Source: a virus
Taxonomy: Duplodnaviria > Caudoviricetes
Virus record (IMG/VR): IMGVR_UViG_3300018080_000191
Span: 1 to 61,267 of that record
Length of the DNA: 61,267 nucleotides
Strand: one strand, 5' to 3'
Every line of letters starts with the position of its first letter. Position 1 is the stretch's first letter. This document shows, piece by piece, positions 21,648 to 39,758 of this stretch. Under the pieces are notes generated by a model that was not told where the DNA came from, did not search any database, and saw only the letters and a program-made list of their open reading frames with translations. The position numbers and the translations under genes were made by a program.

Positions 21648-24600
21648 TTGAAAAGCGATTTAGCGGAATTTAAGTCTTTTATTGGTCGGGACTTCTCAGA
21701 AATAAAATATCATCTGCACACTCAGGGATATGAGTTCGCCTGGGGTAGCACATATTCAATCAATGATGTGCGTAAGGCAATTATGGATCGCCAGCCCGTT
21801 TTTGTTCAGTTGTCTGGACACACGGGCCTGGTTGTTGGTGAGAATCCCGATAGCCTTGTAGTCCATGATGGGAGAAAGATCCTTGAAATTCCCGATTCCA
21901 GGCTTATGAAGTCGTGGACTGGAAATGCTATTATTGTTCAGGAATCCGTAAATGAAACAGAGAACAACGGTAACCCCCTGGTCCTGTTTACCCCGGAGCG
22001 GGATAACTGGCCGGCAGAATGGGAATTGCAGAAACTGGCAACAAACAGGATTTTGAGAACGCTGCAGCTCGATGAGCCCTTTCTCCCGCCACATCCGATT
22101 ATTGTATCATACATAAAACCAACCCAAAACGAGATATCAAAAGGGATTAAGGCTATGCTCCTGGGGGCCGAAGTCAACATTTACGATCCCTCAGATCCCC
22201 TGACCGAGTTCTTGCATGAGCTGGGGCATCTGTATTGGTATACCAGGCTCACGAAAGAAGAAAAACAGGAATGGATTGATTATCACAATACCCTATCGAA
22301 AAAGAACGCTTCTGCAATATTTGCGGGAAAGGCGGGGATGCAGACCGTTGAAGAGGCTTTTGCGACTATCTATATGTGGTATCTGAAGAGCAAGGTTATC
22401 CATGAGGGTTATGGTCGCATTTTGCGATTTCAAGAGCCGAAGGGTCTTGGGCTCCTTGAGAACGTTGTCGAGAGAGTCCGGTACGAGAACCAGGCCGTGG
22501 ATAAGTACAGGGAAAACGAGCAGCTTCTTGCCGAGTGGGTAGAAGCAGAACCGCGCGTGATGAGGCTCGCGGGGGGTTCCAGGATTATCAAGGCTAGGTT
22601 TGGCAGTAAGCCGGCGGAAAAGATACCATTCCCCAGGGTAATAAAACACACAATTAACGAGAGAGAGGATGGCAGAGTATTTATAACCGTAAATGAGGGC
22701 TTGCTGAAGGGTAAGGAACTGGTTGTCAAGGACGGCTTTATCGAGCTGGGTTATGAACCGCTGCTGAAGGCCGGTCCGGGGAAGAAAGATACAACGAAGC
22801 TTGTCAGGAAGGTTATTACCAACAAGAAGGGGCATCGGCAGACAGTTTGGGTCCGTCCTGGGGAGAAAGAGAAAAAGAGAAAGCCTAGTAGTGGTGGGGG
22901 GTTGAAGGAAAAACTACTGGCGAGTACCATCAATGAGGATTACAAAAAGGAGTGGGAGGAGAATAATCGTTTAACTCTACTCGGCCAAAAGGTTACGAAC
23001 GCGAACGATCTCGCGTACTTGGCTAGGATATACAGGAACCCTCAGTATGAAACGTTCCGGATATTTATGCTTAACGACAAGGATGAGGTTGTTGCACAAA
23101 CAGGTATATCGCTGAGGTTGCCTGGGGCTGCGACACCTTTTGTAGAGCCCGAATGTCCGCCAAGGTCGTGGATGTATTACAAATCGATGATGAAAAACTC
23201 GGGAGCAACAAAGTATTACCTGCTGCATAACCACCCAAGCGGACGAACAACACCGTCTATGGCGGACGAGGTTGCAACGCGAGCATTTATCAACCAGATT
23301 CCCGGATTTAAGGCCCATATCGTTATCAATCATGACGAGTATACGAAAATCCAAGCTTTTCCGGACAGCAGTCAGCTTGATATTGAAAAGTCACATTACA
23401 GTCCCCAGGGAGACGACAAATATCATCAAAAAGGCGAAGTTCATCCCCTGGTGGGGGTCAAAATTCTTGATCCCGATCAGTTGGTAGACTTGGCAAAACA
23501 TGCAGAATTTAACAGTAAACGTTATATTTCGCTAATTTCTACTGATGTATACGGAAAGGTAAGCGGGATCATGCAGGTGCCGAAAAACTATTTTCGTGGT
23601 TTTGCCGATAAGGGTTATGATTCCATTCGCGATTTTGCCAGGACAGTCGGGAGTATGAGAATATTTATGATTGGTGGTGGTGAATATGGTAAGTGGGAGA
23701 AAAATTATGATTGGTCTACAGTATATAGAAATGCGATAAAAAGGGGTTATCTTACGGATGCCGTTACCGGTGACGGGAAAAGCTTGTCAGAGCGAGTAGC
23801 ATATATTCGCGACATCAGGCCGGACCCTGGTTATCTTATGGGGGTAAAATTCAGCGAGGCGAAGCCCACGGTCCACGAGGCTGTAAGGAAAGCCAGGGAC
23901 TTTATTTTAAAAGCCAAGGATATTTCGAAGCTCGTTAAAAAGGTTATTATAAATAAAAAAGGAAAGCAGCAGACGGTCTATGTAAAGCCGAGTTCAGGAG
24001 AATATAAAAAGAAGCCGTGGGAATTAACGAAAGAGGAATTTATAAAGAATACGCCAGAGGGATTCAATTATAGTAATTTAATTAAACATGAAGCTGATCG
24101 TCATACAAAACCACCATTGATCACTGTTGGTGATAAATTTTTTAAACTTACACCAATTGAAAGAGAACATGTAATAATCCATGAAAGAGGTCATGAGCTT
24201 TCAGACAAAATGCTTAAAGATGGAAGTGCATTTAAGCTTGCTGACTCTGGGGCATTTGGGCCAAAATATAAAGATGGCACAATAAATGGTATAAATGGGC
24301 AATTCACCCCCGGAGAGAATGTTGCTGAGGCTTATGCGATGTTAATCAGCAATTATAGATGGTTAAAAGAAAAATATCCAATAGTATATAAAAAAATAGG
24401 GGAAAAGGCAATGAGTTATGGCCTGGATATTCCCTTTGCCGTTCAAAAGGAACTTGGGATTATTAAAGTAGATAAAAATCAAAGCAAAAAAAAGAAGAAA
24501 GTGAAAATACTTCCCCAAAAAGTTCGCGAGAATATTGTTGAAAAAGCAGAATTTAAGAAGTGGTTCGGGAACAGCAAGGTTGTTGACGATAAAGGGAAGC

Positions 24601-27407
24601 CACTGGTCGTATATCACGGGACAACAGCAGAGGGCTTTACCGAGTTCGCAGCCGGTAGCGATGTTTCAGGGGAGAGCGATGAATATTATCGTACTGGTAG
24701 TGGTGGCGATCCTACAACTTTTCTCGGAAGCCATTTTGCAGACAGCTCCCTGGTCGCGGGGAAGTTTGCACGGGGCCTGTACGGAGAGCGGGAGTTTTCT
24801 GATAAGGGTGGCAGGATTATGCCGGTTTATCTGAAGATGGAGAACCCGCTGAGGGTTGACGAATCAGAGATGTTTGATATGATGTATCGAGAGTCATATA
24901 ATGCGCCCATTATCGAGAGTATCCTAGAGGGGGAAGCGTATGACGAAGATGTTGAGCCAGAGGAGATTTACGAGCGGTATGATACAGATGAGAAATACAG
25001 GAAAGATATAAATAAGCGAGCTCTCGAGGAGGAGAATCGGGCAGAGGAGCCCATATTTGAGCTCGCACAGGAAATGGCAGATACACTCAGGTCGAAACTG
25101 ATAGATGATGGCCATGACGGTATTATCTATGATAATGAAGTTGAGGGTGGGGTGTCGTATGTCGTATTCGAGTCAACACAGGTGAAATCAGCGACAGGGA
25201 ATCGGGGGACGTTTGATCCGAAGAATCCGGATATAACAAAGGCGTTTCGGGAGATCCTGAAGGCCCCGAAAGACGTTGCGAAGCTAGTTAAGAAAGTTAT
25301 TATCAATAAGAGAGGGAAAAAACAGACCGTTTACGTGAAGCCAGTCGGAGCTAAATCGGAGCCCAAAACGAGGCCTGTTAAGACGGAGTTCAAAAAGAAG
25401 TCCAAGAAGGGGAAAGCAATACACTCTCCTGCGTTCAAGGCCTGGTTCGGGGATTGGGAAAAGGGAGAAGGGAGCCGGGTGGTTAAGAAGGACGGAAGCC
25501 CGCAGGAAACCCATCACCTGGAGAGTTATCCGGACGAAAAGGGAGAGCCGATTAAGGTGTATCACGGGACGGAGAAGGGTGGTTTTACTGAATTTGATGA
25601 AAATGCGATAGATCCCGATGCCCTCTATGGAGCCGGATTTTATTTTACTGAGGATGAAAAAATTGCAGAAGAGTATGCTGGGGGTGGCTTGTATGATGGC
25701 GAGTATACGGTTGTAAAAAGCGATGGCATGAATCATGTGCTATCGTTTGAAGATGAGGACGATCTCGACGATTATACTTCGCAGATGCCAGATGACGAGT
25801 ATAATGCTGCAAAGCAGTACGAGAAAGACGGAAAGTATTTTCTGGAATATAGTGCTGGTCCCGAGAGCGAGGTTTACGAGGTTTATCTTAATATCAGAAA
25901 GCCATTTGATATTGATAATGGTATCATACCGTTTGAGAAATTGAGAGATTTTGTTGAAAAGACAGGTTTGCTGAAGCAGGAAAAGAAAAAGAGTGCCATG
26001 GGGCAGTTGGATGATCCCGATAAACAGGTTGACTATAAATACGAGCATGCGAGTTGGTTGCTCGGTGGTGATGTAGACATAGTAAATGCATTGCTGAAGT
26101 CTATTGGTCATGATGGTCTTACCCATATGGGTGGCAGGAGAGTGGGTACTCGCGATCATCGCGTCTGGATAGCCTTTAAGCCAAACCAGATAAAAGCCAC
26201 AACCGCAGAAGAGTTTGATCCCGGCAGCAATAACATCTATAAGGCAGTGGAGCAGCTCAGGAGCCTTCTGGAAATTGACCTCTCTGGGCTGGGGGAGCGA
26301 TATAGTCATGACTTTAAGAGGTTAGGGACTGAGTTCGGGGACGTGCTCAGGAAGGGGATAAGCTATGCTGATTTGAGGAAGCGCGTTAAAGCCACTGAAA
26401 CCAGCCCAACCGAGGCCCAAAAGCGGGCCGGAAACTATAAAAAGGCGAAGATCCCCTGGAATGGTCTGACTATTTCAATCGAAAACCCGAAGGGTTCCTA
26501 TCGCTCGGGTGTTGATAGGAGCGGGCAGGAGTGGAAATCAAAACTGCATCATGATTATGGCTATATAAACCGGACCGAGGGAGGGGACGGAGATCATGTT
26601 GATGTATTCATCGGCAAGGATGTTGATAGCGATAAAGTTTTCGTCATTAACCAGGTGGATCCGGAGACTGGCCGATTCGATGAGCACAAGGTCATGATCG
26701 GGTTTATGAGTGAGGACGATGCGAGATCTGGATATTTGGCAAACTATGAGGATGGCTGGAATGGAATCCGTGATATTGTTACCCTCTCTTTGGACCAGTT
26801 TAAGAAGTGGTTGAATTTTGGAAATACAAAGGAGTCGTTGATAAGAGAGGCCATTGCAAAGCTTAATACTGTTATTAAGGCAGCAAAAGATAAATCGCAT
26901 CTTACGCCGACCAAAGTTACCAGGAAAGATGGGGTAATTACTACGGTTTACAAGAATCTCAACAAAAAGGTAGAGATAGCAAATTTTGTACGTGATGCAA
27001 TAAAAAATCCACACGGGTATCCTCATACTTTTGAATATGGAGAGGTTGACAAAAAGGAGAATGAGAGGTATAAGAAAATCGGCTTTGACCTGGAGGGGTA
27101 TATACACGTATTAGATAGGTCGGGTATCAGGCATATACATAAAAGGCATGGTGTTGGAAATGAAACGGACCAGAAACTTTCTCCGGTTAAAACCAAACAT
27201 ATCAGGATGATTCCCGATATAGTGAAAAATCCGGACCGCGTTGAATATGCTGGTACTGATGATACTATGGGGCATGATGTTTTACGATATATTCGTAGAA
27301 TAAACGGGGACGTAGTTTATGTTGAAGAAATAAGGATTGGGAAGAAAAGGGTGTTGGCAACGAAGAGTATGAGAATAGAAAAGAGGAGACGCTCTGATGT
27401 CAAATGA
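21648..27407 (+). CDS. 1919-aa polyvalent protein: C39-like, zincin, JAB/RadC, zincin, 2x ART-PolyVal-like, inorganic PPase, PBECR-like RNase
   Basis: HELGH at 22215; HNHPSG..PS.AD at 23226; HERGH at 24180; FKKWFG..VYHGT at ~24552-25240 and FKAWFG..VYHGT..GFYFT at ~25434-26240; PTEAQKRAGNY...IENPKG...DGDHVDVF at ~26400-26820; IRHIHKRHG...IPDIVKNPD...YVEEI at ~26970-27385. Confidence 0.88.
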   Translation: MKSDLAEFKSFIGRDFSEIKYHLHTQGYEFAWGSTYSINDVRKAIMDRQPVFVQLSGHTGLVVGENPDSLVVHDGRKILEIPDSRLMKSWTGNAIIVQESVNETENNGNPLVLFTPERDNWPAEWELQKLATNRILRTLQLDEPFLPPHPIIVSYIKPTQNEISKGIKAMLLGAEVNIYDPSDPLTEFLHELGHLYWYTRLTKEEKQEWIDYHNTLSKKNASAIFAGKAGMQTVEEAFATIYMWYLKSKVIHEGYGRILRFQEPKGLGLLENVVERVRYENQAVDKYRENEQLLAEWVEAEPRVMRLAGGSRIIKARFGSKPAEKIPFPRVIKHTINEREDGRVFITVNEGLLKGKELVVKDGFIELGYEPLLKAGPGKKDTTKLVRKVITNKKGHRQTVWVRPGEKEKKRKPSSGGGLKEKLLASTINEDYKKEWEENNRLTLLGQKVTNANDLAYLARIYRNPQYETFRIFMLNDKDEVVAQTGISLRLPGAATPFVEPECPPRSWMYYKSMMKNSGATKYYLLHNHPSGRTTPSMADEVATRAFINQIPGFKAHIVINHDEYTKIQAFPDSSQLDIEKSHYSPQGDDKYHQKGEVHPLVGVKILDPDQLVDLAKHAEFNSKRYISLISTDVYGKVSGIMQVPKNYFRGFADKGYDSIRDFARTVGSMRIFMIGGGEYGKWEKNYDWSTVYRNAIKRGYLTDAVTGDGKSLSERVAYIRDIRPDPGYLMGVKFSEAKPTVHEAVRKARDFILKAKDISKLVKKVIINKKGKQQTVYVKPSSGEYKKKPWELTKEEFIKNTPEGFNYSNLIKHEADRHTKPPLITVGDKFFKLTPIEREHVIIHERGHELSDKMLKDGSAFKLADSGAFGPKYKDGTINGINGQFTPGENVAEAYAMLISNYRWLKEKYPIVYKKIGEKAMSYGLDIPFAVQKELGIIKVDKNQSKKKKKVKILPQKVRENIVEKAEFKKWFGNSKVVDDKGKPLVVYHGTTAEGFTEFAAGSDVSGESDEYYRTGSGGDPTTFLGSHFADSSLVAGKFARGLYGEREFSDKGGRIMPVYLKMENPLRVDESEMFDMMYRESYNAPIIESILEGEAYDEDVEPEEIYERYDTDEKYRKDINKRALEEENRAEEPIFELAQEMADTLRSKLIDDGHDGIIYDNEVEGGVSYVVFESTQVKSATGNRGTFDPKNPDITKAFREILKAPKDVAKLVKKVIINKRGKKQTVYVKPVGAKSEPKTRPVKTEFKKKSKKGKAIHSPAFKAWFGDWEKGEGSRVVKKDGSPQETHHLESYPDEKGEPIKVYHGTEKGGFTEFDENAIDPDALYGAGFYFTEDEKIAEEYAGGGLYDGEYTVVKSDGMNHVLSFEDEDDLDDYTSQMPDDEYNAAKQYEKDGKYFLEYSAGPESEVYEVYLNIRKPFDIDNGIIPFEKLRDFVEKTGLLKQEKKKSAMGQLDDPDKQVDYKYEHASWLLGGDVDIVNALLKSIGHDGLTHMGGRRVGTRDHRVWIAFKPNQIKATTAEEFDPGSNNIYKAVEQLRSLLEIDLSGLGERYSHDFKRLGTEFGDVLRKGISYADLRKRVKATETSPTEAQKRAGNYKKAKIPWNGLTISIENPKGSYRSGVDRSGQEWKSKLHHDYGYINRTEGGDGDHVDVFIGKDVDSDKVFVINQVDPETGRFDEHKVMIGFMSEDDARSGYLANYEDGWNGIRDIVTLSLDQFKKWLNFGNTKESLIREAIAKLNTVIKAAKDKSHLTPTKVTRKDGVITTVYKNLNKKVEIANFVRDAIKNPHGYPHTFEYGEVDKKENERYKKIGFDLEGYIHVLDRSGIRHIHKRHGVGNETDQKLSPVKTKHIRMIPDIVKNPDRVEYAGTDDTMGHDVLRYIRRINGDVVYVEEIRIGKKRVLATKSMRIEKRRRSDVK

Positions 27408-27453
27408 CGACCTCCAGCTCTACGGCCCCAACCCGCTTTCCCCTCTTTCCCGT
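27378..27453 (-). ncRNA. candidate ~75-nt antisense structured RNA over the RNase 3' end
   Basis: 12-bp closing stem 27439-27450/27378-27389 pairs fully only on the minus strand (two G-U pairs), directly downstream of a minus-strand promoter. Confidence 0.45.
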
Positions 27454-27459
27454 AAAGAT

Positions 27460-27488
27460 AATTTACTATTACTTAGCGTGAATGTCAA
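27460..27488 (-). promoter_or_regulatory. minus-strand sigma70-type promoter
   Basis: TTGACA (27488-27483), 17 bp, TAAATT (27465-27460). Confidence 0.6.
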
Positions 27489-27757: not shown

Positions 27758-27764
27758 CGTAATA

Positions 27765-27809: not shown

Positions 27810-27844
27810 GTTTCGAAATGGGTATTTATATAGGGGATAAAATC

Positions 27845-30800
27845 ATGAAATTAGCGGAACTACTCAATAAAGCTCGAAAAAATACGTTACGCAAAGGGAA
27901 ACCTCCCGGGAAGCTTGATACGTCTAAACTGGTCAGGAAACAGATCATTGACAAAACAGGGCGTAGAACGACCAAGTGGGTCCGTGTCGTAAAAGAGGAA
28001 AAGAAGTCTATCTGGGATATTATTTCCGGTTTTTTTAAGAATCGGGATCCAATACGTGTAGTGCATGAAGAATATGACAAGCACAGAATAAAAGATAGGT
28101 TTGGGATAAACATGAAGTCCTGGACAGAACATTTTGTCGAATATTTCAAGAATAAGGCGAAGTGGGATAAGCTGTTCGGTAAAACCAAAACTACTACCGG
28201 TGGTGGTGGCGGAAAAACCGGTGGTGGCGGTGGCAAAACTGGCGGTGGTGGGGAGAAGGCAACCCCAACGCTTAATCGCAATGTTATGAAGTTTCTCTAT
28301 GAAACTTATGGAAATTTAAGGGAGGCAAAAGATGGAAAAGATCAACCTGGTGCTGGACGAGAGGTACTTTCCGAGGCTGGCGAGGATGAACGCGGAAAGG
28401 CTCAGGCAAAAGTTAGTGTCGCTGTGCCAGATGCACAACCTTCCGATCACGGAAGCCAATCTACGGTCAGTGGCAGCGGATCTGGAATCGGATCTGGCAA
28501 CAAGTCTTGGAAGCAAGGATTGAAAGAAATTAAGGATATTCGGGCCCAATGCCTGGAGATTCTTAAAAAGTCTGATGAGGAAATAACTTACGATGATTTA
28601 CAGATTTTGCGACAATATGAGGGCATTGGCGGAGTTGAGAGCGAGGGTCGTGGGATATTAGATCAGTATTACACTCCCCACAAAGTTATTAGCAAGATGT
28701 GGGATTTGGTAGCCAAGTATCCCCAACGCAGGCAATCTGGGAAGTGGAACTCTCGCGTCCTGGAGCCTGCAGCAGGAACAGGGCGGTTCGCGGATGGTAT
28801 AAGCGGGGATGTAAATTTTGACATGATAGAGCCGGATCCGATTGCAGCTCGGATCAACAAGTTGTTGCATCCGGATGCAAACGTTATTGAGGGTGAATTT
28901 CAATCACTGTTTTTTAAAGAGGGCCGTCTCCATCAGAAAAAATATACGGGCAAAAAGTATGATGTCGTTATCGGTAATCCGCCGTATAGGCCCTATGAGG
29001 GTAAATGGAAAGGTATGGGTGAGGGTAAAGGCCATACCCAGATGCACGAATATTTCATTGATCGGGGCCTGGATACCCTGATAGCAGGTGGTATCCTGGC
29101 CATGATAGTGCCATCAGGTTTCCTCAGAAGTGCGAACAGTAAAGTAAAAGAGGAGATCGCCAAGAAGGGTCGGTTGCTTGAGGCGTATAGGCTCCCGAAC
29201 GGTACATTTAACACAACGGCGGTGGGGACCGATATCCTGATTATCCGAAAAGAAGAAGGCGGGAGCACCGAGCACTTTTTTGATGACAATTACTTTAATG
29301 ACAATCCCACACATATCCTGGGAGAGGAGTCTACGAGGACGGGCAAGTTTGGTCCCGAAAGGTTTGTATCTCTGAGGACCGGCCAAACGTTTGATAGCAC
29401 TATTGACATGATTAACGTAAATGCTGTTGAGCGTGTTGGCATGGGTGAGAAAACGCTATCTGAAGAGGCAAAGGAAAAAATATCTCTGGCATTGATGGGG
29501 AATAAAAACGCCGAAAAGGAGATACATGAAGAGCACAAGGACAACTTCAAAGAAGCCCACAAGGGTGAGAGCGTGGAACTCTTGGAGTCGCTCCTGGGAG
29601 CCGAGAAGGCGAACGAGGCCAAGGACCAGGCCAGGGTAGAAGCCCTCCAAGAGATGGTTGATCAAAGGAAAAAGACAAAATATAATGATGTTGGCACCTG
29701 GAATCTGAAGAAGTTTCACAGGGAATTGAGCGAAAGTATAAAAACTGGTGGTGTTCACGAAAGCGACCTGGAGCAGGCCAAAAAGAACCTGACCGAGATG
29801 GAAGTGGAACTGCAAAAAAGGCAGGAGTGGACGAAAGAGGATGAGAAAAAGGCGAAGCAGCGCGAGAAGATTAAAAAGCAGGAAGCAACGGCACCGGAAG
29901 CCACAGAGAAGAAGAAAAAGGAGTTCTATACTCTAGATGAGTTTATAAAACAATATGGCGGAAAGTTTGACGAGCTTGACCTGAAGATATGGCGACATAC
30001 CAAAAATGATGGCTCGATAGATATATCGCAGACCCCCTGGAACAAGGACAGTAAGGGCCGTATCTGCTATTTGGGTGGAAAGTATTATCACAATACGAAC
30101 TATGCCAGCGGGAATGTAATTGAAAAGCTTAAAAAACTTGAAGAGGAAAAAGACGAGATCATAAAGAAGTTTGGCAAGGAGCAATATACGAGACAGAAGG
30201 AACTTCTGGAGAGCGTCAAACCCGAATATAAAACCACGAAAGAAATTGTGATGTCCCCATTGTCCAGTTTTGTGAGGGATTTTAGATTCGAATGGGATAA
30301 AGACGAAAACGATAGTCAAAAGTCCCTGATTCAGTTATTCTGGGATTGGTGTGGTGTCGAAAGTAATTGGAGGGGAACCAACTTTAACGGTGGTGCCACT
30401 CCTCACGATCTTACTGGCGGGATAGATTGGGATGATATTGTTGAATATGTCAACAGGGTACCCAGGAAAAAGTCGCAGCATGAAACGAAGGAATTTGTTG
30501 GACAAATTAAAGCCAAAAGGCGTGAAAATGCGGAGAGGCTGTTTAATCGCTTTATCCAGGAGGGGCTCTCGGGTAAGTATAAAGAGGATTTTGAGAATAG
30601 ATTCAACGAGCGTTTCAACAGCAATGTAAATGCCGATTTTGCGAATATCCCGGTATTTGTGGATGGGTTATCAAAAACCTTTAAGGGAGACAAGCTACAG
30701 GTAAAGGACGTTCAGCTCGAGGGTGCAGCGTATTTGACCAATAAGGGGGCCGGACTATTGGCGTATGAGGTTGGGGTTGGAAAGACTTTAACGGGTATTC

Positions 30801-33243: not shown

Positions 33244-35379
33244 ATGAAGGCTGAAACTGAGAATCTGAAGGCTTTATTGAAAGCCGGCGGGCATAAGTAT
33301 ATCAAGAGATTACCGCACCCGAGCCCGAAGCCTGGAAGGAAGTACATCTATTTCTACAACCAGGAGCAGATTAAGAAGTATAAGGAAACAGGCGAGATCC
33401 CGGGAGACGAAAAGGGTGAAAAAAAGAGCAGCGTACTTGGTACGATAATGAAATTTTTTGGGTTCAAGCGCGAGACTGAAGCGGATGCAAAGGTAAGGGC
33501 GGTAAATGCAGAGTTGAGTGATGCTGGCCTTCATGTTGGATATACTACAACGCTGGAGCACATGGCCGAGTATTTTTCCAATAAGGCCAAGTGGGATGCC
33601 AGGTTCTCGAAAAAAAGCGGTGGTGCTAAGTCCGGAGCAGGATCGGGTGAGAAAAAGACTGGTGGCGGAGCCAAACCCGAGAAGAAATGGAATACTAACG
33701 TTATGAGGTTCCTGTACCAAAAATACGGCAGTGGCGGAGGGGCTAGCGATGACCAGGCCAAGAAAGAAAAGGAGTTGCGCGAGCTTGGTATAGCAGAAGA
33801 TGTAATTGAGCAACGAAAAGAAGAGGATGGCGATCTGGATACCCTTTACGATGAGTCAATGGGGGTGGGAGAGGAAAATGCTGATAAAATGAGGGAAGAT
33901 CTGAAAAAGGATATCAATGGCCTGCTCGACAAATATGAATCTGCAGAGGGCAAGGAAAAGGAAAAACTTGCCGGCCAGGTAAAGGAGAAGTTTGGGCAGC
34001 TCTCGAAGGAAGACAAGGAGAAACTGCTCGATGAGCGGAAAAGGAGTGGTGAAAAGGGTAAACCAGAAGAGAAGAAGGGAGATGTTGACGATTCCAATGA
34101 TTTTGGTGTGGATAGACTGAAAGAAAATGAGAAAAAGTTATTGCTTGAGATAACTGGCGATAAGGATGTGAAAAAGGTTCTTGAAAAATGGAAGGCAATT
34201 GACGATGGCATTTTCAATGATAAAGAGTTAGTCGTTTTAAATGGGATAGTTTATCACAAGCTAGACTCAAATAAAAGGCCATTAGCAGGTGCAGTTAATT
34301 ATAAAAAGTTTAAGGAAGAATATCCTCATTTTGTTTCGAATGATATGCTGCATAAAGATTCTTTAATTCACGGTGGGGTATTTGTACTGACCCCAAAAGG
34401 TGAAGATGTGCTAAAAGGCAGAGTCCGGAGATTATTGACTAAGTTTGGCAAGGGGAAAGAGAAGGGCATACCTCAAGACGAGAAGCTTTCCAAGCGTGAA
34501 GAGCAACTCTCCAGGATGGTTGAGAAGCATGAAAAAGGAGTTGATAAGGAGACCCAGAAAAAGACCGAGGAGATCGCCGAAGGGGCGGGAGTTGATACGG
34601 GTAAGGTACCTGATGAGCCAGGCACAGAATACGGTCATCCGTCCATCGAGGGTACCCTGGTCCACGGCGATGCCGATACTGTTTTAAAGAAACGGTCCAA
34701 CCCGAAGAAAGCCCTTGAGCCTGGAGTTGCAGATTTATCAGACCATTTTGGCATACACATGATGAACGAAGCTCTCGAAAAAGATGGAATCTATACCAAC
34801 ACCAAATTTATGATTATTGATGATCCTAAAAACGTTAAAGACATATACGAGAAGAACAGGGAAAAATTTATTGATAGCCGGGTCAAGGATATTAAAAAAT
34901 CCGTAAGTAAGGGAGATGGTGAACCCTTGTCTGATGAAGAGGCCCGAGAATTGGCGATAAAGAATCTTGAAGATGAAATGAATAATGCCAAAAAACTGCC
35001 CTGGCAAAGTGCTGTGCCGAAGGAGAAGGATATCCCCAAGAAGGAGGCGCAGATTATTGGCGGATACAAGACTGCTCAGGCAAAAATGTGGTGCTCTCTC
35101 CTCTCTGATGGGGAAAATCATGCTTTTGTCCAGAATGACTACATTGCAATGTTCAGGAAGCGGTATCCTGGTGCAAGATTTAAAGTAACAAGCAGCAAGG
35201 GGGCCGGGAAAAGTCCTGTTGTTGTCGAGAAAGATGGCAAAATGGTAGGTGTTGTTATGCCTATACTGATGGGATCGAATGCTGGCGAGGCTCGGGATCA
35301 CCTGCTGGAGCAGCAAAAGAAGCGGGGCCTGAAAAAAGCACTTGGCGAACCAATTGAAATATTTGGGATAAGGGTATAG
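33244..35379 (+). CDS. 711-aa putative virion cargo protein; C-terminus possibly beta-clamp-like
   Basis: N-terminal domain shared with neighbours; C-terminal YIAMF...SPVVV...VGVVMPI; tail KALGEPIEIFGIRV. Confidence 0.7.
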   Translation: MKAETENLKALLKAGGHKYIKRLPHPSPKPGRKYIYFYNQEQIKKYKETGEIPGDEKGEKKSSVLGTIMKFFGFKRETEADAKVRAVNAELSDAGLHVGYTTTLEHMAEYFSNKAKWDARFSKKSGGAKSGAGSGEKKTGGGAKPEKKWNTNVMRFLYQKYGSGGGASDDQAKKEKELRELGIAEDVIEQRKEEDGDLDTLYDESMGVGEENADKMREDLKKDINGLLDKYESAEGKEKEKLAGQVKEKFGQLSKEDKEKLLDERKRSGEKGKPEEKKGDVDDSNDFGVDRLKENEKKLLLEITGDKDVKKVLEKWKAIDDGIFNDKELVVLNGIVYHKLDSNKRPLAGAVNYKKFKEEYPHFVSNDMLHKDSLIHGGVFVLTPKGEDVLKGRVRRLLTKFGKGKEKGIPQDEKLSKREEQLSRMVEKHEKGVDKETQKKTEEIAEGAGVDTGKVPDEPGTEYGHPSIEGTLVHGDADTVLKKRSNPKKALEPGVADLSDHFGIHMMNEALEKDGIYTNTKFMIIDDPKNVKDIYEKNREKFIDSRVKDIKKSVSKGDGEPLSDEEARELAIKNLEDEMNNAKKLPWQSAVPKEKDIPKKEAQIIGGYKTAQAKMWCSLLSDGENHAFVQNDYIAMFRKRYPGARFKVTSSKGAGKSPVVVEKDGKMVGVVMPILMGSNAGEARDHLLEQQKKRGLKKALGEPIEIFGIRV

Positions 35380-35381
35380 AA

Positions 35382-38300
35382 ATGCAACCGATACTATTTG
35401 AGATCGCAGATTGTGATGACCATATCGGTAAATTAAAAGAACTTCTTAAAGCTGGCGGTAAGAAGGACATCAGCAAGCTCCGGAAGGAAGTCATTACCAA
35501 TAAGCGCGGGAAGAGGCAGACCGTATATAAGAAAATCCATGAAGATGAGAAAAAAAACGTTTTTGACATCATCATGGAATTTTTCGGATTTAAAAAGAAA
35601 AACGAGGTGCTGCAGCAGCTTGATAGCGATTACAAGAAACATGATATCGCAACAAAATTCAATCTGTCACACGATCAGTGGACCAGTCACTATCTGGAGT
35701 ATTTTAAGCACAAAAAGAGATGGGATGCTGCATTTGCCAAAAAAAAGACTACCGAAGGTGGTGGAGAACGCAAAAAGGGTGGTGAAAAGAAAACAGGGGG
35801 TGGCGATGAGAAAAAGAAAGGCATTACCTGGAACAGGGACGTGATGAAGTTTTTGCACGAACTCTACGGGAAAGGGAAGCCGGAGACAGAAAAAGAGGTG
35901 GGGAAATACAAGGACCTGGTTGGTAAGAAATTTAAAATATCTACTACCATGGTCAGCGGTTCGAGCATGAAGCCCGAGAAGATAGATAGCGAGATAGTTG
36001 TTGAAAAGATAGATGACTCAGGGATACATTACCGGGATGCCAAGGATGTTGGAAAACCCGCCCACGAGGGTGGTAGTGGATTTATGACTTTTAATGGTTT
36101 TAACAGGATGGTTGCTGCAGGCGAGATGATGGAGATAAAGCCTGATGTCACCGAAAAAGTTAAGGAGTTGCTAACCACAAAAAAAGAGCGGAAAAGAAAA
36201 CCACTCAGCAGCGGGGAAGGGGAGAAAGAAGAGAGCAAGCCCCGGGGCCCTACCGAGGAAAAGAAGAAATATCTTGATGTTGGCGAAAAGATAGGCGGAG
36301 CCAGGAAAGATATCGCAGCACTGATGAACATGTATAAAACCGAAAAAGATAAGGCTGTATCCATGACAGATCTGGAAGCCATTGAAGAGTCTGGCGAAGC
36401 CGGCTTGCTGATAAATAGAGAACGCCAGTTCGGAGGCAAGAAAGCCATTGTTGATATGATGCGCTCTGTGGGAGCTGATTCTGGGGCTACATATATTGTT
36501 TGGAGACTGGCATCGAGCATCGAAAAAATGCCTGCCGATAACCCAGAGTCCCGGAAAAAATATGTATTGGGAATTGAGCGATTGCTAAAAACAGTTGTGA
36601 ACTGGACTGATGTAAGTGCAGCAAGAGAGGGGTTGAGTATTATACAATCCGAACTTAACGGATATTATTATACAGATAGTGAGCTTGCAACATCGAAGGC
36701 AATAGACGAAAGGACATCAAAAATCAAGTCTGAGATAAATAAGATATGGAATCAAATATATATTCCCAAATATAAAGGTACAGGCGGGGACTGGAGAAGA
36801 AAAGCATCAGATATTTTCTGGAAGGACCCGGATGTTGTTAAGCTAGAAAAGCAAAAAGATGAGCTAAGGAAGGAATTTTTAAAAATAAGAAAAGTGGCGC
36901 AAGAGAGATCGGATAATGACCCCATGTCTCCGGCAAACCTGTATAAGGCACTCGGGAAAAGCTTTACCGAACTTATTGCCCCTCCATGGAGATCGAAGAG
37001 GAGAGATACGCTTATAAATAATGCCTACAAAAATGATGACTGGAAGTGGGCGGGAGGGGCGAAGGAAACCGGCGAAGAGGAAAAGGAGCGCAAAAAGAAG
37101 AGTCGAGAAAGGTTGAAGTGGAGACGTGAGGTTCCCGAGGAAGTTGAACGCGTGTCTCAGGCTGGGACCAAGGATTACGAATCAAAAACGCTTATGAATG
37201 ATTTCGGGCTCAGGGCTGTTGAATACGGCAACTGGATGGATATAGAATCGAGCAAGATCCATACACAGCGAGCTGGCGAAGCCCTGGCGGACCTGGCCTA
37301 CCTTTTTGGTGTGGATAAGAAGCTGATATCCCTGAACGGCAGGCTCGCAATAGCGTTTGGAGCTCGAGGGAAAGGTAAAGCCTCAGCTCATTATGAACCC
37401 GGGAGAAAGGTTATCAACATCACAAAAGAGAGGGGTGGCGGGTCCCTGGCGCACGAATGGGGGCATGCCCTAGACAATATCCTGTCCATAGTGGCTTATA
37501 AAGAAGCCGGCCAGGAGGGGGGCAATATTTCTTTTATGTCCGATTCGGACTATAAGAATAAGTATTCTCATACACTGGGAACGGTTCAAACTGCGTTAGA
37601 CAAGGTTAATGATGCCATACATAAGGGCAGTTTTGTGATGCGGAAAACCATCAATCTGAAGGGAAGCGAAAGATATCAACATAGTACTTTCTGGAAGTAC
37701 GAGGAAAGAACCGCAATAGGGCTTTATGGGGAGCCAAATGAGAAGGGCAGGTTACAAGAAATATGGAAAGAGGTTAAAACCACCAACGATAAATATAAAG
37801 GTGATAACGAAGCCCACAAAAAGCCGGAGTTTTATGATGATCTATTTGCTCATAAAGACCTACAGCATCCAGTAGACAGAGCAAGGATGCGTGAGTTCAT
37901 TGAGGGTGATATTTTATACCGTAGCGATTTTGCAATGAAACACGTTTGGGAACTTGTGCCAGGTGAAGGCATTATTGACTGGAAAACCGTTGATGTCGGT
38001 AAACTCGGGGAATACTTGCAGAAAAAGGCTGATGAATATGTTGATACAAGGAAAAGTCAATATGATGACGATTATTTTAAAAGAAAATATTTAGAAAAGG
38101 ACTGGGATCGTCTTGACAAAAGGGTGGCTTATGAATTCAGGAAAGAGAGTGATGCTGACTATATAATGTCAAAACTTTATCATGATGGAGACAAAAAAGA
38201 GCCGATCACCATTAACATGAAAAGCGTTCGTCCTGTTGGGGGCAAGTCCAACTACTTTTCCACTGCAAGCAAAATGGGGGGGTATTGGAAAAGGCCTCAT

Positions 38301-38612
38301 GAGTTATTTGCCCGCGCATTTGAAAGCTACGTTTACGATAAGCTCAGGGAAAAGAACATGAAGAACAGCTATCTTGTTTCTGGTGTGTCGAAAGAGGCTG
38401 CTGCGAATTGGGGGAAAAAGGCCAAGGAGCTCGAGGGCGAGGGTGGGGTGACAAGCATATACCCCCTGGGAGACGAGAGAGAGCGTATTAACGCTGCTAT
38501 GGATGAACTGGTGGAGGCAATCAAGGAACACGAAGTTTTGGCAAAAGCAATTCAGATCCTGGATGCTCAGCTCCTAAAAGCTCCTATCGAAATTTTTGGG
38601 ATTAAGGTGTAA
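35382..38612 (+). CDS. 1076-aa LPD1-type polyvalent protein with zincin motif
   Basis: DVGEKIGGARKD, VEYGNW, LAIAFGARG, AHYEP, SLAHEWGHALD, YWKRPHELFARAFESYV, YP.G.ER. Confidence 0.85.
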   Translation: MQPILFEIADCDDHIGKLKELLKAGGKKDISKLRKEVITNKRGKRQTVYKKIHEDEKKNVFDIIMEFFGFKKKNEVLQQLDSDYKKHDIATKFNLSHDQWTSHYLEYFKHKKRWDAAFAKKKTTEGGGERKKGGEKKTGGGDEKKKGITWNRDVMKFLHELYGKGKPETEKEVGKYKDLVGKKFKISTTMVSGSSMKPEKIDSEIVVEKIDDSGIHYRDAKDVGKPAHEGGSGFMTFNGFNRMVAAGEMMEIKPDVTEKVKELLTTKKERKRKPLSSGEGEKEESKPRGPTEEKKKYLDVGEKIGGARKDIAALMNMYKTEKDKAVSMTDLEAIEESGEAGLLINRERQFGGKKAIVDMMRSVGADSGATYIVWRLASSIEKMPADNPESRKKYVLGIERLLKTVVNWTDVSAAREGLSIIQSELNGYYYTDSELATSKAIDERTSKIKSEINKIWNQIYIPKYKGTGGDWRRKASDIFWKDPDVVKLEKQKDELRKEFLKIRKVAQERSDNDPMSPANLYKALGKSFTELIAPPWRSKRRDTLINNAYKNDDWKWAGGAKETGEEEKERKKKSRERLKWRREVPEEVERVSQAGTKDYESKTLMNDFGLRAVEYGNWMDIESSKIHTQRAGEALADLAYLFGVDKKLISLNGRLAIAFGARGKGKASAHYEPGRKVINITKERGGGSLAHEWGHALDNILSIVAYKEAGQEGGNISFMSDSDYKNKYSHTLGTVQTALDKVNDAIHKGSFVMRKTINLKGSERYQHSTFWKYEERTAIGLYGEPNEKGRLQEIWKEVKTTNDKYKGDNEAHKKPEFYDDLFAHKDLQHPVDRARMREFIEGDILYRSDFAMKHVWELVPGEGIIDWKTVDVGKLGEYLQKKADEYVDTRKSQYDDDYFKRKYLEKDWDRLDKRVAYEFRKESDADYIMSKLYHDGDKKEPITINMKSVRPVGGKSNYFSTASKMGGYWKRPHELFARAFESYVYDKLREKNMKNSYLVSGVSKEAAANWGKKAKELEGEGGVTSIYPLGDERERINAAMDELVEAIKEHEVLAKAIQILDAQLLKAPIEIFGIKV

Positions 38613-38615
38613 GTT

Positions 38616-39758
38616 ATGGATGGAATATCAATGCTTAAATCAAAACTTGAGGAAACTGCTCACAAATCCCCGCCGAAGGAATATCGAGAAGAGGGGGCAG
38701 CAGATCGGGGGGATTATGCAGACCCAAAACGATATAAATACCCTCTCCATACGGAAAAGAATGTTCGGGCTGCAATCAGCTATTTTGCTCAACCCGATAA
38801 TCACGGGATGTATTCTCCAGAAGAGCGAAAAAGTATAGCCAGGAAAATTTTTAACGCAGCCCGGAAGTACAATATTGAAGTAAGTGATGACTGGAAGGAA
38901 AAGTTTAACCTATCCAAGGCGATGGGCCAGGATGGGGAACGAGAGCAAACAGGTGGTACAGGTTTTTGTGTATGCCCGAAGTGTGGACATAGAGCAAAGC
39001 ATGACAGGGGAAAGCCCTGCAATACATTAACCTGCCCCGAGTGTGGTGTTGCACTGACGGGGGAGGGGACCGCTGGAAGTAAACTCAAAAAGAGTAAGGT
39101 AATTAAGACGCGTGTAATTCTTACCCGAGATGGTAAAATGCTTATGAAAAGCCGGACCGGAAAAAAGGAAAATCCTGCAATAACAGTAATAACAAAAATG
39201 GTAAATGAATATGAGATAAACGGTGGAGACCCGGCTGTAGCAATTGAAAGTATTCGGAACGTCGTGAATAGCCATAAGGATCGGCTCCCGAACCTATCAA
39301 AAGTCCTGGAGGATGAATTTGGAAGTAGAACGCTGAAGGCGAAAGATACGTCCAGGTTAATTAAAAAGCAGATTATCAACAAGCAGGGCAAGAAGCAAAC
39401 AGTATACGTGAGGCCCGGGGAAGATCCCCAAAAACAGGTCCAAGGGCAGCAACAACCCGGGGTGCAGCAGGCCAGAAAAGATTCTGATACCGCGAAAGAG
39501 GAGAAGAAAAAGTCAAAACGGGACATGTTTAAAAACGCTATTAAAAATTTGATTGAGACGATGACGCAGGTATTTTCGGGCCAAGGTGGGACAGAGCAGG
39601 CAACGGGCACGGCACAGCAAGCTGGCGAGGATGCGTCAAGGGTTGGCATTGCACAGAGGAAGGAAAAAACTGCGAAAAAACGAGAGAAGCAAGCAGAAAA
39701 GAAAACAGAGAAAAAGTCTGGAAAAGATTATTATACAGGAACCCTGTTTGAATTATGA
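38616..39758 (+). CDS. 380-aa multidomain protein: DUF6582-like, Zn ribbon, basic tag
   Basis: KYPLHTEKNVRAAISYF; CVCPKCG..H..G.PC...CPECG; KDTSRLIKKQIINKQGKKQTVYVRP. Confidence 0.75.
   Translation: MDGISMLKSKLEETAHKSPPKEYREEGAADRGDYADPKRYKYPLHTEKNVRAAISYFAQPDNHGMYSPEERKSIARKIFNAARKYNIEVSDDWKEKFNLSKAMGQDGEREQTGGTGFCVCPKCGHRAKHDRGKPCNTLTCPECGVALTGEGTAGSKLKKSKVIKTRVILTRDGKMLMKSRTGKKENPAITVITKMVNEYEINGGDPAVAIESIRNVVNSHKDRLPNLSKVLEDEFGSRTLKAKDTSRLIKKQIINKQGKKQTVYVRPGEDPQKQVQGQQQPGVQQARKDSDTAKEEKKKSKRDMFKNAIKNLIETMTQVFSGQGGTEQATGTAQQAGEDASRVGIAQRKEKTAKKREKQAEKKTEKKSGKDYYTGTLFEL

Follow-up and report, generated by a model that had tools for sequence, protein, structure and literature searches.

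A recurrent basic hairpin tag beside capsid-type K-A sites in candidate head-packaged proteins of an uncultured phage

The 61,267-nucleotide viral DNA analysed here (the window) raises the question of whether a short basic motif, recurring in adjacent genes beside the virion head genes, could serve as an address for proteins carried in the phage head. A sequence-only reading had placed seven copies of this ~30-aa motif, hereafter the tag, in four adjacent genes (4+1+1+1), and each of the ranges it gave translates to the motif (Table 1), two of the seven missing a whole number of codons by a trivial 1-2 nt. A profile built from the seven copies and run against the six-frame ORFs of >=50 aa in the whole window exceeded 8 bits only at those seven places, where it scored 49-64 bits. 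The recurrence of the motif is far above chance.

Table 1. Features of the candidate cargo genes and the neighbouring head genes. An arrow marks the putatively cut bond.
Feature	Coordinates	Strand	Description
Portal protein	5251..6912	+	Upstream border of head module
P0001	21648..27407	+	1919-aa polyvalent protein; Pfam and motif domains
Tag copy a, P0001	22761..22859	+	LLKAGPGKKDTTKLVRKVITNKKGHRQTVWVRP; LLK↓AGPGKKDTTKLVRKVITNKKGHRQTVWVRP; 64.0 bits
Tag copy b, P0001	23904..23990	+	ILKAKDISKLVKKVIINKKGKQQTVYVKP; 61.3 bits
Tag copy c, P0001	25254..25343	+	ILKAPKDVAKLVKKVIINKRGKKQTVYVKP; 60.3 bits
Tag copy d, P0001	26871..26958	+	Divergent; VIKAAKDKSHLTPTKVTRKDGVITTVYKN; 49.0 bits
P0002	27845..33238	+	DarB-like; Eco57I-type adenine methylase and SNF2 helicase (with Helicase_C)
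Tag copy, P0002 N-terminus	27887..27990	+	LRKGKPPGKLDTSKLVRKQIIDKTGRRTTKWVRV; LRK↓GKPPGKLDTSKL...; 50.9 bits
P0003	33244..35379	+	711 aa; no family match
P0003 tag position	33271..33360	+	LLK↓AGG leader (start ...LKALLKAGGHKYIKRLPHPSPKPGRKYIYFYN), then a different basic hairpin, HKYIKR...GRKYIYFY
P0003 C-terminal peptide	35335..35376	+	LKK↓ALGEPIEIFGIRV; h-x-K-A site and conserved tail
P0004	35382..38612	+	1076 aa; HEWGH zincin-like region, C-terminal LPD1
Tag copy, P0004 N-terminus	35442..35537	+	LLKAGGKKDISKLRKEVITNKRGKRQTVYKKI; 57.4 bits
P0004 C-terminal peptide	38577..38609	+	LLK↓APIEIFGIKV
P0005	38616..39758	+	380 aa; DUF6582, CxxC...CxxC stretch, tag, low-complexity basic tail
Tag copy, P0005	39330..39416	+	TLKAKDTSRLIKKQIINKQGKKQTVYVRP; 63.6 bits
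P0006	40217..41083	+	Probable prohead protease; D-WHH and AS[VI]GG motifs; N-terminal LQK↓A
P0007	41098..41790	+	Scaffold-like; very acidic N-terminus; 7 h-x-K-A sites
P0008	41813..43306	+	Major capsid protein, SPO1/Twort type (Herelleviridae-like); N-arm site NLLK26↓A27LQAQEG, nt 41888-41893

The core of the tag spans ~27 residues with the consensus K/R-D-x-S/T-K-L-x-K-K-x-I-T-N-K-x-G-x-x-Q-T-V-Y/W-V-x-P, in which the uncharged residues I, T, N, G, Q, T, V, Y/W, V and P are conserved, and is followed by a flexible linker. The 25 residues after the tag are 68% G/P/S/E/K/Q/D/T/N, compared with 59% in random 25-mers from the same proteins. AlphaFold2 models of 19 tags show a helix (residues 2-12) and two strands (20-25, then 31-36), with pLDDT 94 and 85 over residues 21-40, and the tag is confidently predicted to form a beta-hairpin. 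Its 27-aa core carries a mean net charge of +6.05 (range +1 to +10). Given that the conserved uncharged residues of the predicted hairpin lie on both faces, a protein partner or self-association is suggested as much as DNA.

A variant of the tag had also been proposed at the start of the 711-aa protein. Here the LLK↓AGG leader is indeed shared, but the hairpin that follows scores only 1.4 bits against the tag profile, which is no match, and we therefore regard it as a positional stand-in that lies outside the tag family. The orthologue of this protein in viral record L002 has a canonical tag at that position, and Leptospira phage LE1-0015 has a hairpin resembling the one in P0003.

In P0001, an N-terminal domain with HELGH (residue 190) is followed by a tag (369-412), RadC (457-549), a tag (748-789), HERGH (845) with ART-PolyVal (980-1189), a tag (1196-1240), a second ART-like stretch (near 1302) with InPase (1589-1723), the divergent tag (1735-1779) and PBECR3 (1801-1915). 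All four tags lie between Pfam or motif domains, and the earlier placement of the copies at effector-domain boundaries is borne out. The start of P0002 was taken at the ATG at 27845, which aligns with the starts of its paralogues, the listed ORF beginning at 27818. Residues 281-1337 of this protein match P1 darB (NC_005856, tblastn) at 25% identity (E 7e-21), and the match to Leptospira phage LE1-0015 is at 33.5% identity (E 2e-122); by homology, P0002 is a methylase-SNF2 dyad of the P1 DarB type. A ~170-aa N-terminal module is common to P0002, P0003 and P0004. The HExxH motif of P0004 lies at residue 691, in a protein that matches NCBIfam CLCA_X at 117 bits, below the family cut-off of 260, and DUF6582 is the sole family match of P0005. 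A Pfam search of the cargo proteins returned no peptidase family, despite three HExxH motifs (two in P0001 and one in P0004).

Judged by its domains, the repertoire of P0001, P0002 and P0004 fits the polyvalent proteins of Iyer and Aravind, in which disparate activities are combined in single polypeptides. The likeness to the proteins described in the text of Iyer et al. (PMC5512222) extends to ART-PolyVal, InPase, PBECR3, RadC, LPD1, the methylase-SNF2 pair and HExxH, and to genes that adjoin those for the virion head. The kinship with polyvalent and Dar-type proteins to which the sequence-only reading had pointed is supported by Pfam domains, darB homology and location in the head module.

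That location is well defined, with the terminase at 3602, the portal at 5251, the capsid at 41813 and the sheath at 49032. The candidate cargo genes sit between the portal gene and the protease-scaffold-capsid genes, with protease and scaffold directly downstream of the cargo, and viral records L002 and L019 have the identical order of cargo and head genes. The P0006 model, although of modest quality (mean pLDDT 60.3), finds its best PDB matches in T4 gp21 (5jbl_A-C, E 5.7e-4 to 8.4e-4, prob 1.00, TM 0.32/0.50), followed by herpesvirus proteases (E 0.04-0.3). P0006 had no match in Pfam and matched the PHROG head maturation protease at E 0.13 only. Among five P0006 homologues, H62 (in D-WHH) and S123 (in AS[VI]GG) are invariant, and these are the putative catalytic residues. 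Within P0006, residues ~198-230 repeat the N-arm of the capsid protein (ELRK↓ALQMGAGTD...QSLEG). The protein probably has an assemblin-like fold (T4 gp21, HK97 or herpesvirus type) and is probably the prohead protease. P0008 shows full-length homology to phrog_752 (E 1.2e-72) and, in the PDB, to SPO1 gp6.1 (9vel, E 1e-29) and phi812 (5lii, E 2.6e-16).

The h-x-K-A sequence (h, hydrophobic) before the tag agrees with a site that is conserved in the N-arm of capsid proteins of this lineage. At residue ~26, h-x-K-A is retained even by capsid homologues with as little as 26% identity (the window, L011-L016 and SP10), and the equivalent site is K-A in SPO1 gp6.1 and K24-S25 in phi812-type capsids. 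PDB chain 9row_B, from a staphylococcal homologue, comprises 439 of the 463 residues in the 5lii sequence, the first being S25, just behind the equivalent Lys; this chain presumably reflects the mature virion protein. Five protease homologues have an N-terminal h-x-K-A/S and, further in, repeat the N-arm of the capsid protein from the same phage, K-A/S included; K68-A69 is invariant in four scaffolds. The N-arm match, the start of 9row_B and the recurrence in protease and scaffold make K↓A the likely cut, with the hairpin kept on the new N-terminus. The capsid-type KA sites that had been suspected from the sequence are matched in capsid N-arm, protease and scaffold, with the refinement that homology puts the cut bond between the two residues and not behind them. 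A cut at this position would leave the tag on the downstream fragment, unlike the T4 signal, which is removed.

Counts of h-x-K-A exceed the mean of 500 shuffles in the protease (6 versus 0.6), the scaffold (7 versus 0.6) and P0001 (10 versus 2.8), and in these three proteins 0/500 shuffles reached the observed count. By the same shuffle test, the excess is not significant in P0002 (6 versus 2.9, p 0.07), P0003, P0004 or P0005. A tape-measure-like ORF at 52162-53727 also has a significant excess (5 versus 1.0), and so helical K/A-rich proteins can show one without a link to the head. When the window is compared with its L002 orthologues, K-A is the best-conserved K-X dipeptide (21/57), other pairs (n>=16) being conserved at 6-27%. 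The leaders upstream of K-A and the tag are not conserved, and the conserved module is the part C-terminal of the site. In the structural models a helix comes before the hairpin, and K-A may do no more than end that helix.

Use of the seven-copy profile as a search model revealed that the tag is conserved in other viral contigs. Among 8000 scored candidates from a 5.8-billion-protein collection, 92 proteins matched at E<=1e-3, and a 1.84-billion library yielded 749 representative proteins at E<=1e-3 and 65 at E<=1e-10. Placement is at N-termini or between effector domains, both in the window and in hundreds of other proteins, in support of the sequence-only reading. For 239 tags in 204 proteins, the core lies in the first 20 residues in 51 cases, at residues 21-70 in 92 and deeper in 96; 30 of the 204 proteins have 2-4 copies, and in 5/5 proteins checked the tags fall between Pfam domains. 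The partners include RadC, ART, InPase, PBECR3, LPD1/3, Zeta toxin and RelA/SpoT, as well as NUDIX+2H, topoisomerase I, lysozyme and ParB, and the same effector domains exist in two forms, alone behind an N-terminal tag or as parts of fusions whose tags are internal. Portal proteins bear the tag too, behind portal domains of other families (PF05136, DUF935). No Pfam domain was found in 53 of the 92 tagged proteins, and peptidase families occur in P0012 only. A K-[AS] dipeptide stands within 16 residues upstream of 150/239 tags, with mostly L/I/M/F/V at P3. The other 89 include some with K-G or K-T and some that begin at Met, and the portal fusions have ..SEA.. or ..EDRSG.. before the tag instead of K-[AS]. 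Several solo tagged proteins begin M-A-G-R-K-D.. or M-A-K-K-D.., that is, where a cut would leave them.

Searches of Pfam, NCBIfam and the sequences of the PDB did not find the tag, and tblastn against INPHARED found no canonical copy in cultured phages; the profile likewise has no match in a Leptospira LE1-like phage or SP10. No description of it appears in the keyword-searched main text of Iyer et al., the supplements of which could name it, or in a word search of the literature. These results fit the earlier impression that the scheme had no prior description, and we read the tag as an undescribed, portable and putative 'cut-and-keep' address on an already known class of phage cargo.

We give roughly an even chance to the reading that the five neighbouring genes encode head-packaged polyvalent effectors that are cut at K↓A and retain the hairpin as an address. 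Full-length polyvalent proteins would enter the prohead, where P0006 would cut them at h-x-K↓A, the same kind of site as in capsid, protease and scaffold. Each released effector unit would then start with the hairpin, as do the solo effectors of other phages, in which it directly follows Met. Once retained, the hairpin would bind the unit inside the head, most likely to packaged DNA or else to a conserved capsid or portal surface, and the bound unit would leave the head together with the DNA at infection. The sequences themselves show the motif with its family, placement, charge and predicted fold, the setting in the head module and the conserved K-A of capsid, protease and scaffold; packaging, the cut, the cutting enzyme and the hairpin's partner are all inferred. 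One point against this scheme is that the N-terminal fragment of P0001 (the first ~374 residues) would carry no tag, and processing may instead be the work of the zincin-like peptidases built into the proteins.

Several known systems invite comparison. Polyvalent proteins are predicted in the text of Iyer et al. 2017 (PMC5512222) to be delivered with the DNA and processed into units by built-in zincin peptidases; in its searched text, that account lacks the recurrent short tag and capsid-type site that lie between domains here. P1 DarB is described as present in virions, together with other Dar proteins whose genes lie near those for portal and protease, and its first 30 residues are enough to direct a reporter into the capsid (PMC9024508). 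The authors of that study report no consensus among P1 Dar N-termini (PMC9024508), whereas a single consensus here spans co-located proteins (P0003 by its leader only) and hundreds elsewhere, and is also internal and multicopy. By sequence, the tag is unlike the P1 DarB targeting signal: the first 80 residues of P1 DarB have no match to the profile even at E 1000. T4 gp21 cuts at L/I-x-E, and so the P1 residue of the cut site is Glu in T4 and Lys here. The internal proteins of T4 are described as carrying an N-terminal capsid targeting sequence beside a prohead-protease site, and as being packaged and injected (PMC9024508). That signal is upstream of the cut and removed, whereas the module found here follows the putative cut and would stay on the protein. 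Identity with a T4-type targeting sequence was rejected because the conserved module is C-terminal of K↓A and the upstream leaders are unconserved.

In phiKZ-like and SPN3US giant phages, the prohead protease is reported to cut many head-internal proteins at a short consensus site before their ejection (PMC10052503, PMC7411985). Capsid lineage, protease lineage and site all differ from those of the window. We know of no shared retained hairpin in those systems. Encapsulin cargo-loading peptides, which are short and portable and address diverse enzymes into an HK97-fold shell, offer an analogy only, since they are C-terminal, have no basic hairpin and are not tied to proteolysis or ejection. 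To our knowledge, experimental targeting signals for injected effectors exist only for T4 and P1. If the preferred reading holds, one short consensus, coupled to a site common to capsid protein, protease and scaffold, would mark the co-located cargo genes (P0003 again by its leader) as well as 749 or more protein clusters outside the window. The tag could then be used as a sequence handle for picking out virion cargo in metagenomes even when the proteins lack a recognisable domain, and the tag with its K↓A site would challenge the current assumption that zincin peptidases are the processing enzymes. Site and hairpin together might also serve as a compact cassette for putting proteins into phage heads.

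A broader reading, possible but in our view rather doubtful, is that the prohead protease of a whole phage lineage dices polyproteins at K↓A and that each effector keeps a DNA-riding hairpin through the tail into the host, the hairpin pairing in other lineages with other sites (..L-S-E-A..), even on the portal. On that reading, fusion to a ~35-residue site-plus-hairpin cassette would be all that is needed for any enzyme to be packed into these heads and delivered from them. It seems unlikely that the hairpin is instead a nucleic-acid handle for use in the host cell, on phage DNA or on host RNA or DNA, with the proteins' own zincins processing them after injection and K-A being structural only. 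The core charge of +6 and the hairpin fold would suit such a handle, as would the HExxH motifs of P0001 and P0004, the sub-threshold CLCA_X-like zincin region and the MPTase-processing model set out in the text of Iyer et al. 2017 (PMC5512222); the tag behind PF05136 and DUF935 portal domains is, moreover, not bound to one capsid type. However, this proposal leaves unexplained both why h-x-K-A is conserved in the capsid protein, the protease and the scaffold of one and the same phage and why solo forms start exactly behind K-A, and in many tagged proteins no peptidase domain can be recognised (53/92 are without Pfam domains, and only P0012 has peptidase families).

We consider it similarly improbable that the tag is strictly a capsid-targeting signal, docking on scaffold, inner capsid or portal while the prohead assembles, in the manner of the T4 capsid targeting sequence or the P1 DarB N30 signal, with no role after assembly, and that its internal copies are relics of fusions between effector genes that each had a tag. 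The internal tags are conserved as well as the N-terminal ones (60-64 bits), the signal would be redundant in portal fusions, and the tag does not resemble the N-terminus of P1 DarB, even though the P1 DarB signal described in PMC9024508 is of similar size. This proposal does draw support from the 60% of tags (143/239) that lie in the first ~70 residues, from the sharing of the tag by otherwise unrelated neighbouring proteins, from its conserved uncharged residues, from the solo and fused forms of the same effector domains and from the very acidic N-terminus of the scaffold. That the motif is just a passive linker between domains or an element of folding, with no addressing role and spread only by the shuffling of polyvalent modules, would agree with the low-complexity linker that always follows the tag (68% versus 59%). 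We find this very hard to credit, given the strong sequence conservation over 749 representative clusters, the frequent position at the extreme N-terminus, where linkers are useless, and the confident hairpin prediction.

Co-occurrence of the tag with one capsid type, a check proposed with the sequence-only reading, was seen in 5/5 tag- or module-bearing viral records searched, all of which have an SPO1/Twort-type capsid, and the same type is present in L019, L020, L022, L023, L027 and L030. Against INPHARED, P0008 matched 430 records, all at <60% identity, the best among those listed being at 25-29%. Matches to the tag in bacterial genomes are all in Spirochaetota MAGs, and the source phage is probably an uncultured myovirus with an SPO1/Twort-type capsid and a spirochaete host.

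The sequence-only reading had described a basic motif of about 30 amino acids (hereafter the tag) recurring at least seven times in four adjacent genes. Each of these seven stretches translates to the motif, and a profile built from the seven copies matched only those seven sites (49-64 bits) among the six-frame ORFs of the window. Four copies reside in the 1919-aa protein (P0001), and the 1797/1806-aa, 1076-aa and 380-aa proteins carry one each. The copies in P0001 do lie at effector-domain boundaries as proposed, since those at residues 369-412, 748-789, 1196-1240 and 1735-1779 separate six elements (Table). The variant said to open the 711-aa protein (P0003) is retained in part: it shares the leader (..LLKAGG), but its hairpin (HKYIKR...GRKYIYFY) falls outside the tag profile. 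The P0003 orthologue on a related contig (L002) carries a canonical tag where P0003 has this different basic hairpin.

Judged by their predicted domains (ART-PolyVal, InPase, PBECR3, LPD1, RadC and a methylase-SNF2 dyad), the candidate cargo genes encode classic polyvalent proteins as Iyer et al. 2017 (PMC5512222) describe them. P0002 is homologous to DarB: residues 281-1337 share 25% identity with P1 darB (E 7e-21), and identity to LE1-0015, from Leptospira phage LE1, is 33.5% (E 2e-122). An N-terminal module of ~170 residues, comprising the tag, a helical part, a Gly-rich stretch and N-x-N-V-M-K/R-F-L, is common to P0002, P0003 and P0004 (1076 aa), and 12 proteins were found with it as query. 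The DarB-like protein of LE1 has the same module but with a variant hairpin, and this phage, as the nearest cultured system, is a possible experimental stand-in. The replacement hairpin of P0003 (33271-33360) resembles the N-terminus of LE1-0015 (VKYYKRELKAKGGYRYWY; L032:4516-5115, behind F-I-K-G). The notion that this variant constitutes a wide family was set aside, as a word-based search returned one relative only. The 380-aa protein P0005 (38616-39758) combines DUF6582, a CxxC...CxxC zinc-ribbon-like stretch (residues ~118-145), the tag and a long tail rich in Lys, Glu and Gln, whose last residues are ..DYYTGTLFEL.

Table. Features of the window and of compared sequences (arrow, proposed cut; positions are in the window unless stated)
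Feature	Position	Detail
Large terminase	3602-5032	PHROG match
Portal	5251-6912	PHROG match
Auxiliary gene block	7936-17398	Between portal and cargo genes; metallophosphoesterase, RNA ligase, nucleotidyltransferase, radical SAM (PHROG)
Five tagged or leader-bearing cargo-candidate genes	21648-39758	
P0001 element, N-terminal part		HELGH
P0001 element, RadC	residues 457-549	
P0001 element, HERGH + ART-PolyVal	ART-PolyVal residues 980-1189	
P0001 element, second ART-like region		
P0001 element, InPase	residues 1589-1723	
P0001 element, PBECR3	residues 1801-1915	
P0003, C-terminal h-x-K↓A peptide	35335-35376	LKK↓ALGEPIEIFGIRV
P0004, C-terminal h-x-K↓A peptide	38577-38609	LLK↓APIEIFGIKV
L002, C-terminal h-x-K↓A peptides	L002 ORFs 9989-12409, 12412-15801	LLK↓ALYSKPLEFFGIRI, LRK↓AVDIHGIEI
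Three further head genes (P0006, P0007, P0008)	40217-43306	
Tail sheath, baseplate, other tail genes	downstream of 43306	PHROG
Capsid N-arm site, window		NLLKALQAQEG
Capsid N-arm site, SP10		NLNKALEAGYG
Capsid N-arm site, SPO1 gp6.1		ALNKALEAGH
Capsid N-arm site, phi812-type		VVK24-S25
Capsid N-arm site, Leptospira LE1-like phage		IKKS
Capsid N-arm sites, other homologues		SLLKALSAQ, GLAKALLAP, SLSKALSAP, EIKKAFEAN, LELEKALEAG
Tags, contig L002		Five adjacent tagged genes
Tags, contigs L008 and L009		Four tag copies in three genes
Tags, contigs L006, L007, L010		One tag each

The tag consensus is h-x-K-A-(0-5 residues)-K/R-D-x-S/T-K-L-x-K/R-K-x-I-T/I-N-K-x-G-x-x-Q-T-V-Y/W-V-x-P. In the AlphaFold2 prediction from a 19-row alignment, a helix runs up to K-A and, after a brief turn, is followed by a hairpin of two strands (20-25 and 31-36); pLDDT reaches 94 and 85 over residues 21-40, against 73 for the whole model. 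Net charge averages +6.05 in the 27-residue core and is negative in none, and the low-complexity sequence after the tag contains 68% small or charged residues, compared with 59% in random 25-mers from the same proteins. Conserved hydrophobic residues occupy both faces of the hairpin, and therefore the hairpin is unlikely to work as a free two-stranded element and should lie on a partner.

The seven tag stretches matched no Pfam family at E≤10, one tag and the N-terminal module found nothing relevant in NCBIfam, a 19-tag profile produced only a chance 8-residue match among PDB sequences (5zuh, E 1.4), and residues 1-175 of P0004 had no usable match in the ESM Atlas. A tblastn search with one tag and the P0004 N-terminal module returned zero matches in 50,697 INPHARED records; no cultured phage with a canonical tag was found. 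Pattern scans did find the tag on other IMG/VR viral contigs (Table). Three contigs retrieved through the N-terminal module at 25% identity (L003, L004 and L005) had no tag above 8 bits; a later profile search gave a weak match (E 4.1e-5) in the L005 record and none in the L003 record. With the 19-tag profile, a word-indexed search yielded 92 proteins at E≤1e-3 among 8000 scored candidates, and an exhaustive search of 1.84 billion representatives yielded 749 at E≤1e-3, of which 65 reach E≤1e-10 and 4 reach E≤1e-30. The 204 proteins listed from both searches, including P0001, contain 239 tags scoring at least 20 bits (one tag in 174 proteins, two in 26, three in 3 and four in 1). The hairpin core begins no later than residue 20 in 51 of these tags, between residues 21 and 70 in 92, and beyond that in 96.

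Precomputed Pfam domains are present in 39 of the 92 tagged proteins from the word-indexed search. Partners in this set include RadC, ART-PolyVal, InPase, PBECR3, LPD1, LPD3, DUF5661, Zeta toxin/AAA_33, RelA_SpoT, NUDIX+2H, eukaryotic-type topoisomerase I, M48, lysozyme, ParB, DUF6908 and DUF5856, together with lambda-type portal domains in six proteins and a Mu-type portal with an intein in one; in tagged portal proteins the tag comes after the portal domain. Nine tagged proteins were scanned against Pfam, of which two had no match and five have tags between or beside domains. This placement indicates that the same effector domains occur alone with an N-terminal tag and in polyproteins with internal tags. 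DUF5661 (PF18905) precedes the tag in P0012, P0014 and P0016, in two cases directly adjacent to it, and may be part of the same delivery apparatus. Portal-tag-cargo fusions occur in other metagenomic phages (P0017, P0060, P0073, P0077, P0080, P0085 and P0042; L026:7229-10087), with the tag directly behind the lambda- or Mu-type portal domain and a long extension after it.

Source names and a scan of bacterial genomes point to spirochaetes. The scan confirmed five loci of 91 pattern matches, all in Spirochaetota MAG contigs (labelled Leptospiraceae, Leptonemataceae, Spirochaetaceae twice, and Spirochaetota). One of these loci, L019 on a 157-kb contig, keeps the gene order seen in the window (five tagged genes, then protease, scaffold and capsid), its protease and capsid being 59-65% identical.

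The K-A that precedes the tag looks like the maturation site of the capsid lineage. An h-x-K-A site is kept at about residue 26 in all capsid homologues examined, though overall identity drops to 26%. The phi812-type protein is represented in the PDB by 463 residues (5lii) and by a 439-residue chain (9row_B; also 9rox and 9roz) that starts exactly at S25, directly after Lys. We read the shorter chain as the mature protein, which would place the cut between K and A/S. The HK97 capsid protein is likewise cleaved after a Lys. The literature searched offered nothing usable on the mature N-terminus of Herelleviridae capsid proteins. The Felix O1 capsid protein is reported to be unprocessed, but that phage encodes a ClpP-type protease, and LE3/LE4, for which proteomics has been published, are unrelated to the phages studied here.

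The probable prohead protease (P0006) has no match in Pfam or the PDB by sequence, and its structural model, of modest confidence (pLDDT 60.3), best matches T4 gp21 and then herpesvirus proteases; BLAST against the SP10 protease aligned only a capsid-N-arm-like stretch. Five P0006 homologues keep D-WHH, AS[VI]GG and an N-terminal h-x-K-A/S, and each also contains, internally, a copy of the N-arm from its own phage's capsid, K-A/S included, which follows the capsid sequence from phage to phage. In P0006 (40217-41083) the copy occupies residues ~198-230 (ELRKALQMGAGTD...ALRMQSLEG, versus NLLKALQAQEGITD...ALQPQSLEG in capsid protein P0008); copies in other phages are LRKALEAPQSVAD (capsid LSKALSAPASSDD) and FCKSLNAGSGTD (capsid LEKALEAGYGTD). 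Through this copy the protease may become incorporated into the prohead before its release. A parallel idea, in which the tag too mimics the N-arm of the capsid, was abandoned because the sequences after K-A are unrelated.

The h-x-K-A motif is enriched in several of these proteins relative to 500 composition-preserving shuffles. The protease has 6 sites (0.6 in shuffles), the scaffold-like P0007 has 7 (0.6), one of them invariant in four homologues, and P0001 has 10 (2.8); in each case 0 of 500 shuffles reached the observed count. The excess is not significant for P0002-P0005, and most of the other 52 ORFs have no such site. However, a tape-measure-like ORF (52162-53727) also shows an excess (5 versus 1.0), indicating that helical K/A-rich proteins can yield one; either the motif count is unspecific or this protein is processed as well. 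Of the K-X dipeptides compared between the window and its L002 orthologues, K-A is conserved best (21/57, versus 6-27% for pairs with n≥16), and the conserved sites include those before tags and others lying 10-14 residues from the C-termini of P0003, P0004 and their orthologues. There, a conserved tail of 9-14 residues (..P-I/L-E-I/F-F-G-I-K/R-V/I) follows the site and is absent from every other ORF or protein compared. The tail could be a removable peptide, perhaps a second address.

Across the larger family, K-[AS] occurs within 16 residues upstream of 150 of the 239 tags (A in 127, S in 23), with mostly L/I/M/F/V at P3. Some of the others have K-G or K-T. Others are strictly N-terminal, and several of these read M-A-G-R-K-D.. 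or M-A-K-K-D.., matching what a cut would expose. A last group, the portal fusions, has ..L-S-E-A.., ..L-E-E-A.. or ..E-D-R-S-G.., which hints that the site varies with phage lineage and the hairpin stays constant. Searching with the fusion protein P0080 matched no genomic locus, an alignment of portal fusions gave only tag matches in contigs already known, and a metagenome scan gave one true portal-fusion contig, which ends just past the gene.

From these sequence features we infer packaging, cutting and addressing as functions associated with the tag. The proteins of these genes are probably head cargo, given their homology to packaged P1 DarB, their polyvalent repertoire and their position in the head module, and they would be packaged in full. 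It is fairly likely that the prohead protease would then cut them at K-A, in which case every unit set free would retain the hairpin at its N-terminus. Whether that retained hairpin would serve as the unit's address inside the head we judge to be about evenly balanced, leaning slightly in favour. The mechanism as a whole, from head cargo through cleavage to a retained address, we give an even chance.

We favour packaged DNA as the partner because the hairpin is charged, would be retained after the putative cleavage, occurs several times in a polyprotein and is also fused to portals, for which a targeting signal would be redundant. That redundancy also counts against one rival, in which the tag is purely an assembly-time targeting signal like those of T4 and P1 DarB. 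A conserved protein surface is a serious alternative to DNA, and the invariant uncharged residues of the hairpin speak for it. Further rivals to a DNA address inside the head are a nucleic-acid tether acting within the host, coupled to zincin autoprocessing, and a passive linker.

The class of polyvalent, DarB-like cargo is already known, as is the principle of a short signal beside a prohead-protease site. Precedents for that principle are the T4 capsid targeting sequence, the N30 signal of P1 DarB (PMC9024508) and the trimming that ejection proteins undergo in phiKZ-like phages. The P1 authors report no consensus among Dar N-termini, whereas the tagged genes here share one. What seems undescribed is the conserved hairpin itself, its position downstream of a putative capsid-type K-A site where it would be kept and not removed, its use at every polyprotein unit boundary and on portals, and its breadth of at least 749 clusters. 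A keyword search of the main text of Iyer et al. 2017 (PMC5512222) found no description of the tag, and a literature word search with tag pentamers and hexamers returned no phage paper.

The window comprises an entire IMG/VR virus record of 61,267 bp with an estimated completeness of 46%, and the + strand holds nearly all long ORFs. P0008 matches phrog_752 (E 1.2e-72) and two capsid proteins of solved structure, from SPO1 (9vel, E 1e-29) and from staphylococcal phi812 (5lii, E 2.6e-16). All 430 matching INPHARED records are below 60% identity, the best listed (25-29%) including Leptospira LE1-like, Bacteroides DAC and Bacillus SPO1-like phages. The auxiliary block is unusual for a head module, and its genes could serve RNA repair or nucleotide modification; the block also encodes a 676-aa protein with a deoxyribonucleotidase-like domain. 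The tape-measure-like ORF encodes 521 aa, includes a hydrophobic segment rich in Gly and Ala, and matched no family. GC skew is strongly positive (0.06-0.34) throughout the 61 kb, with virtually all genes on the same strand.
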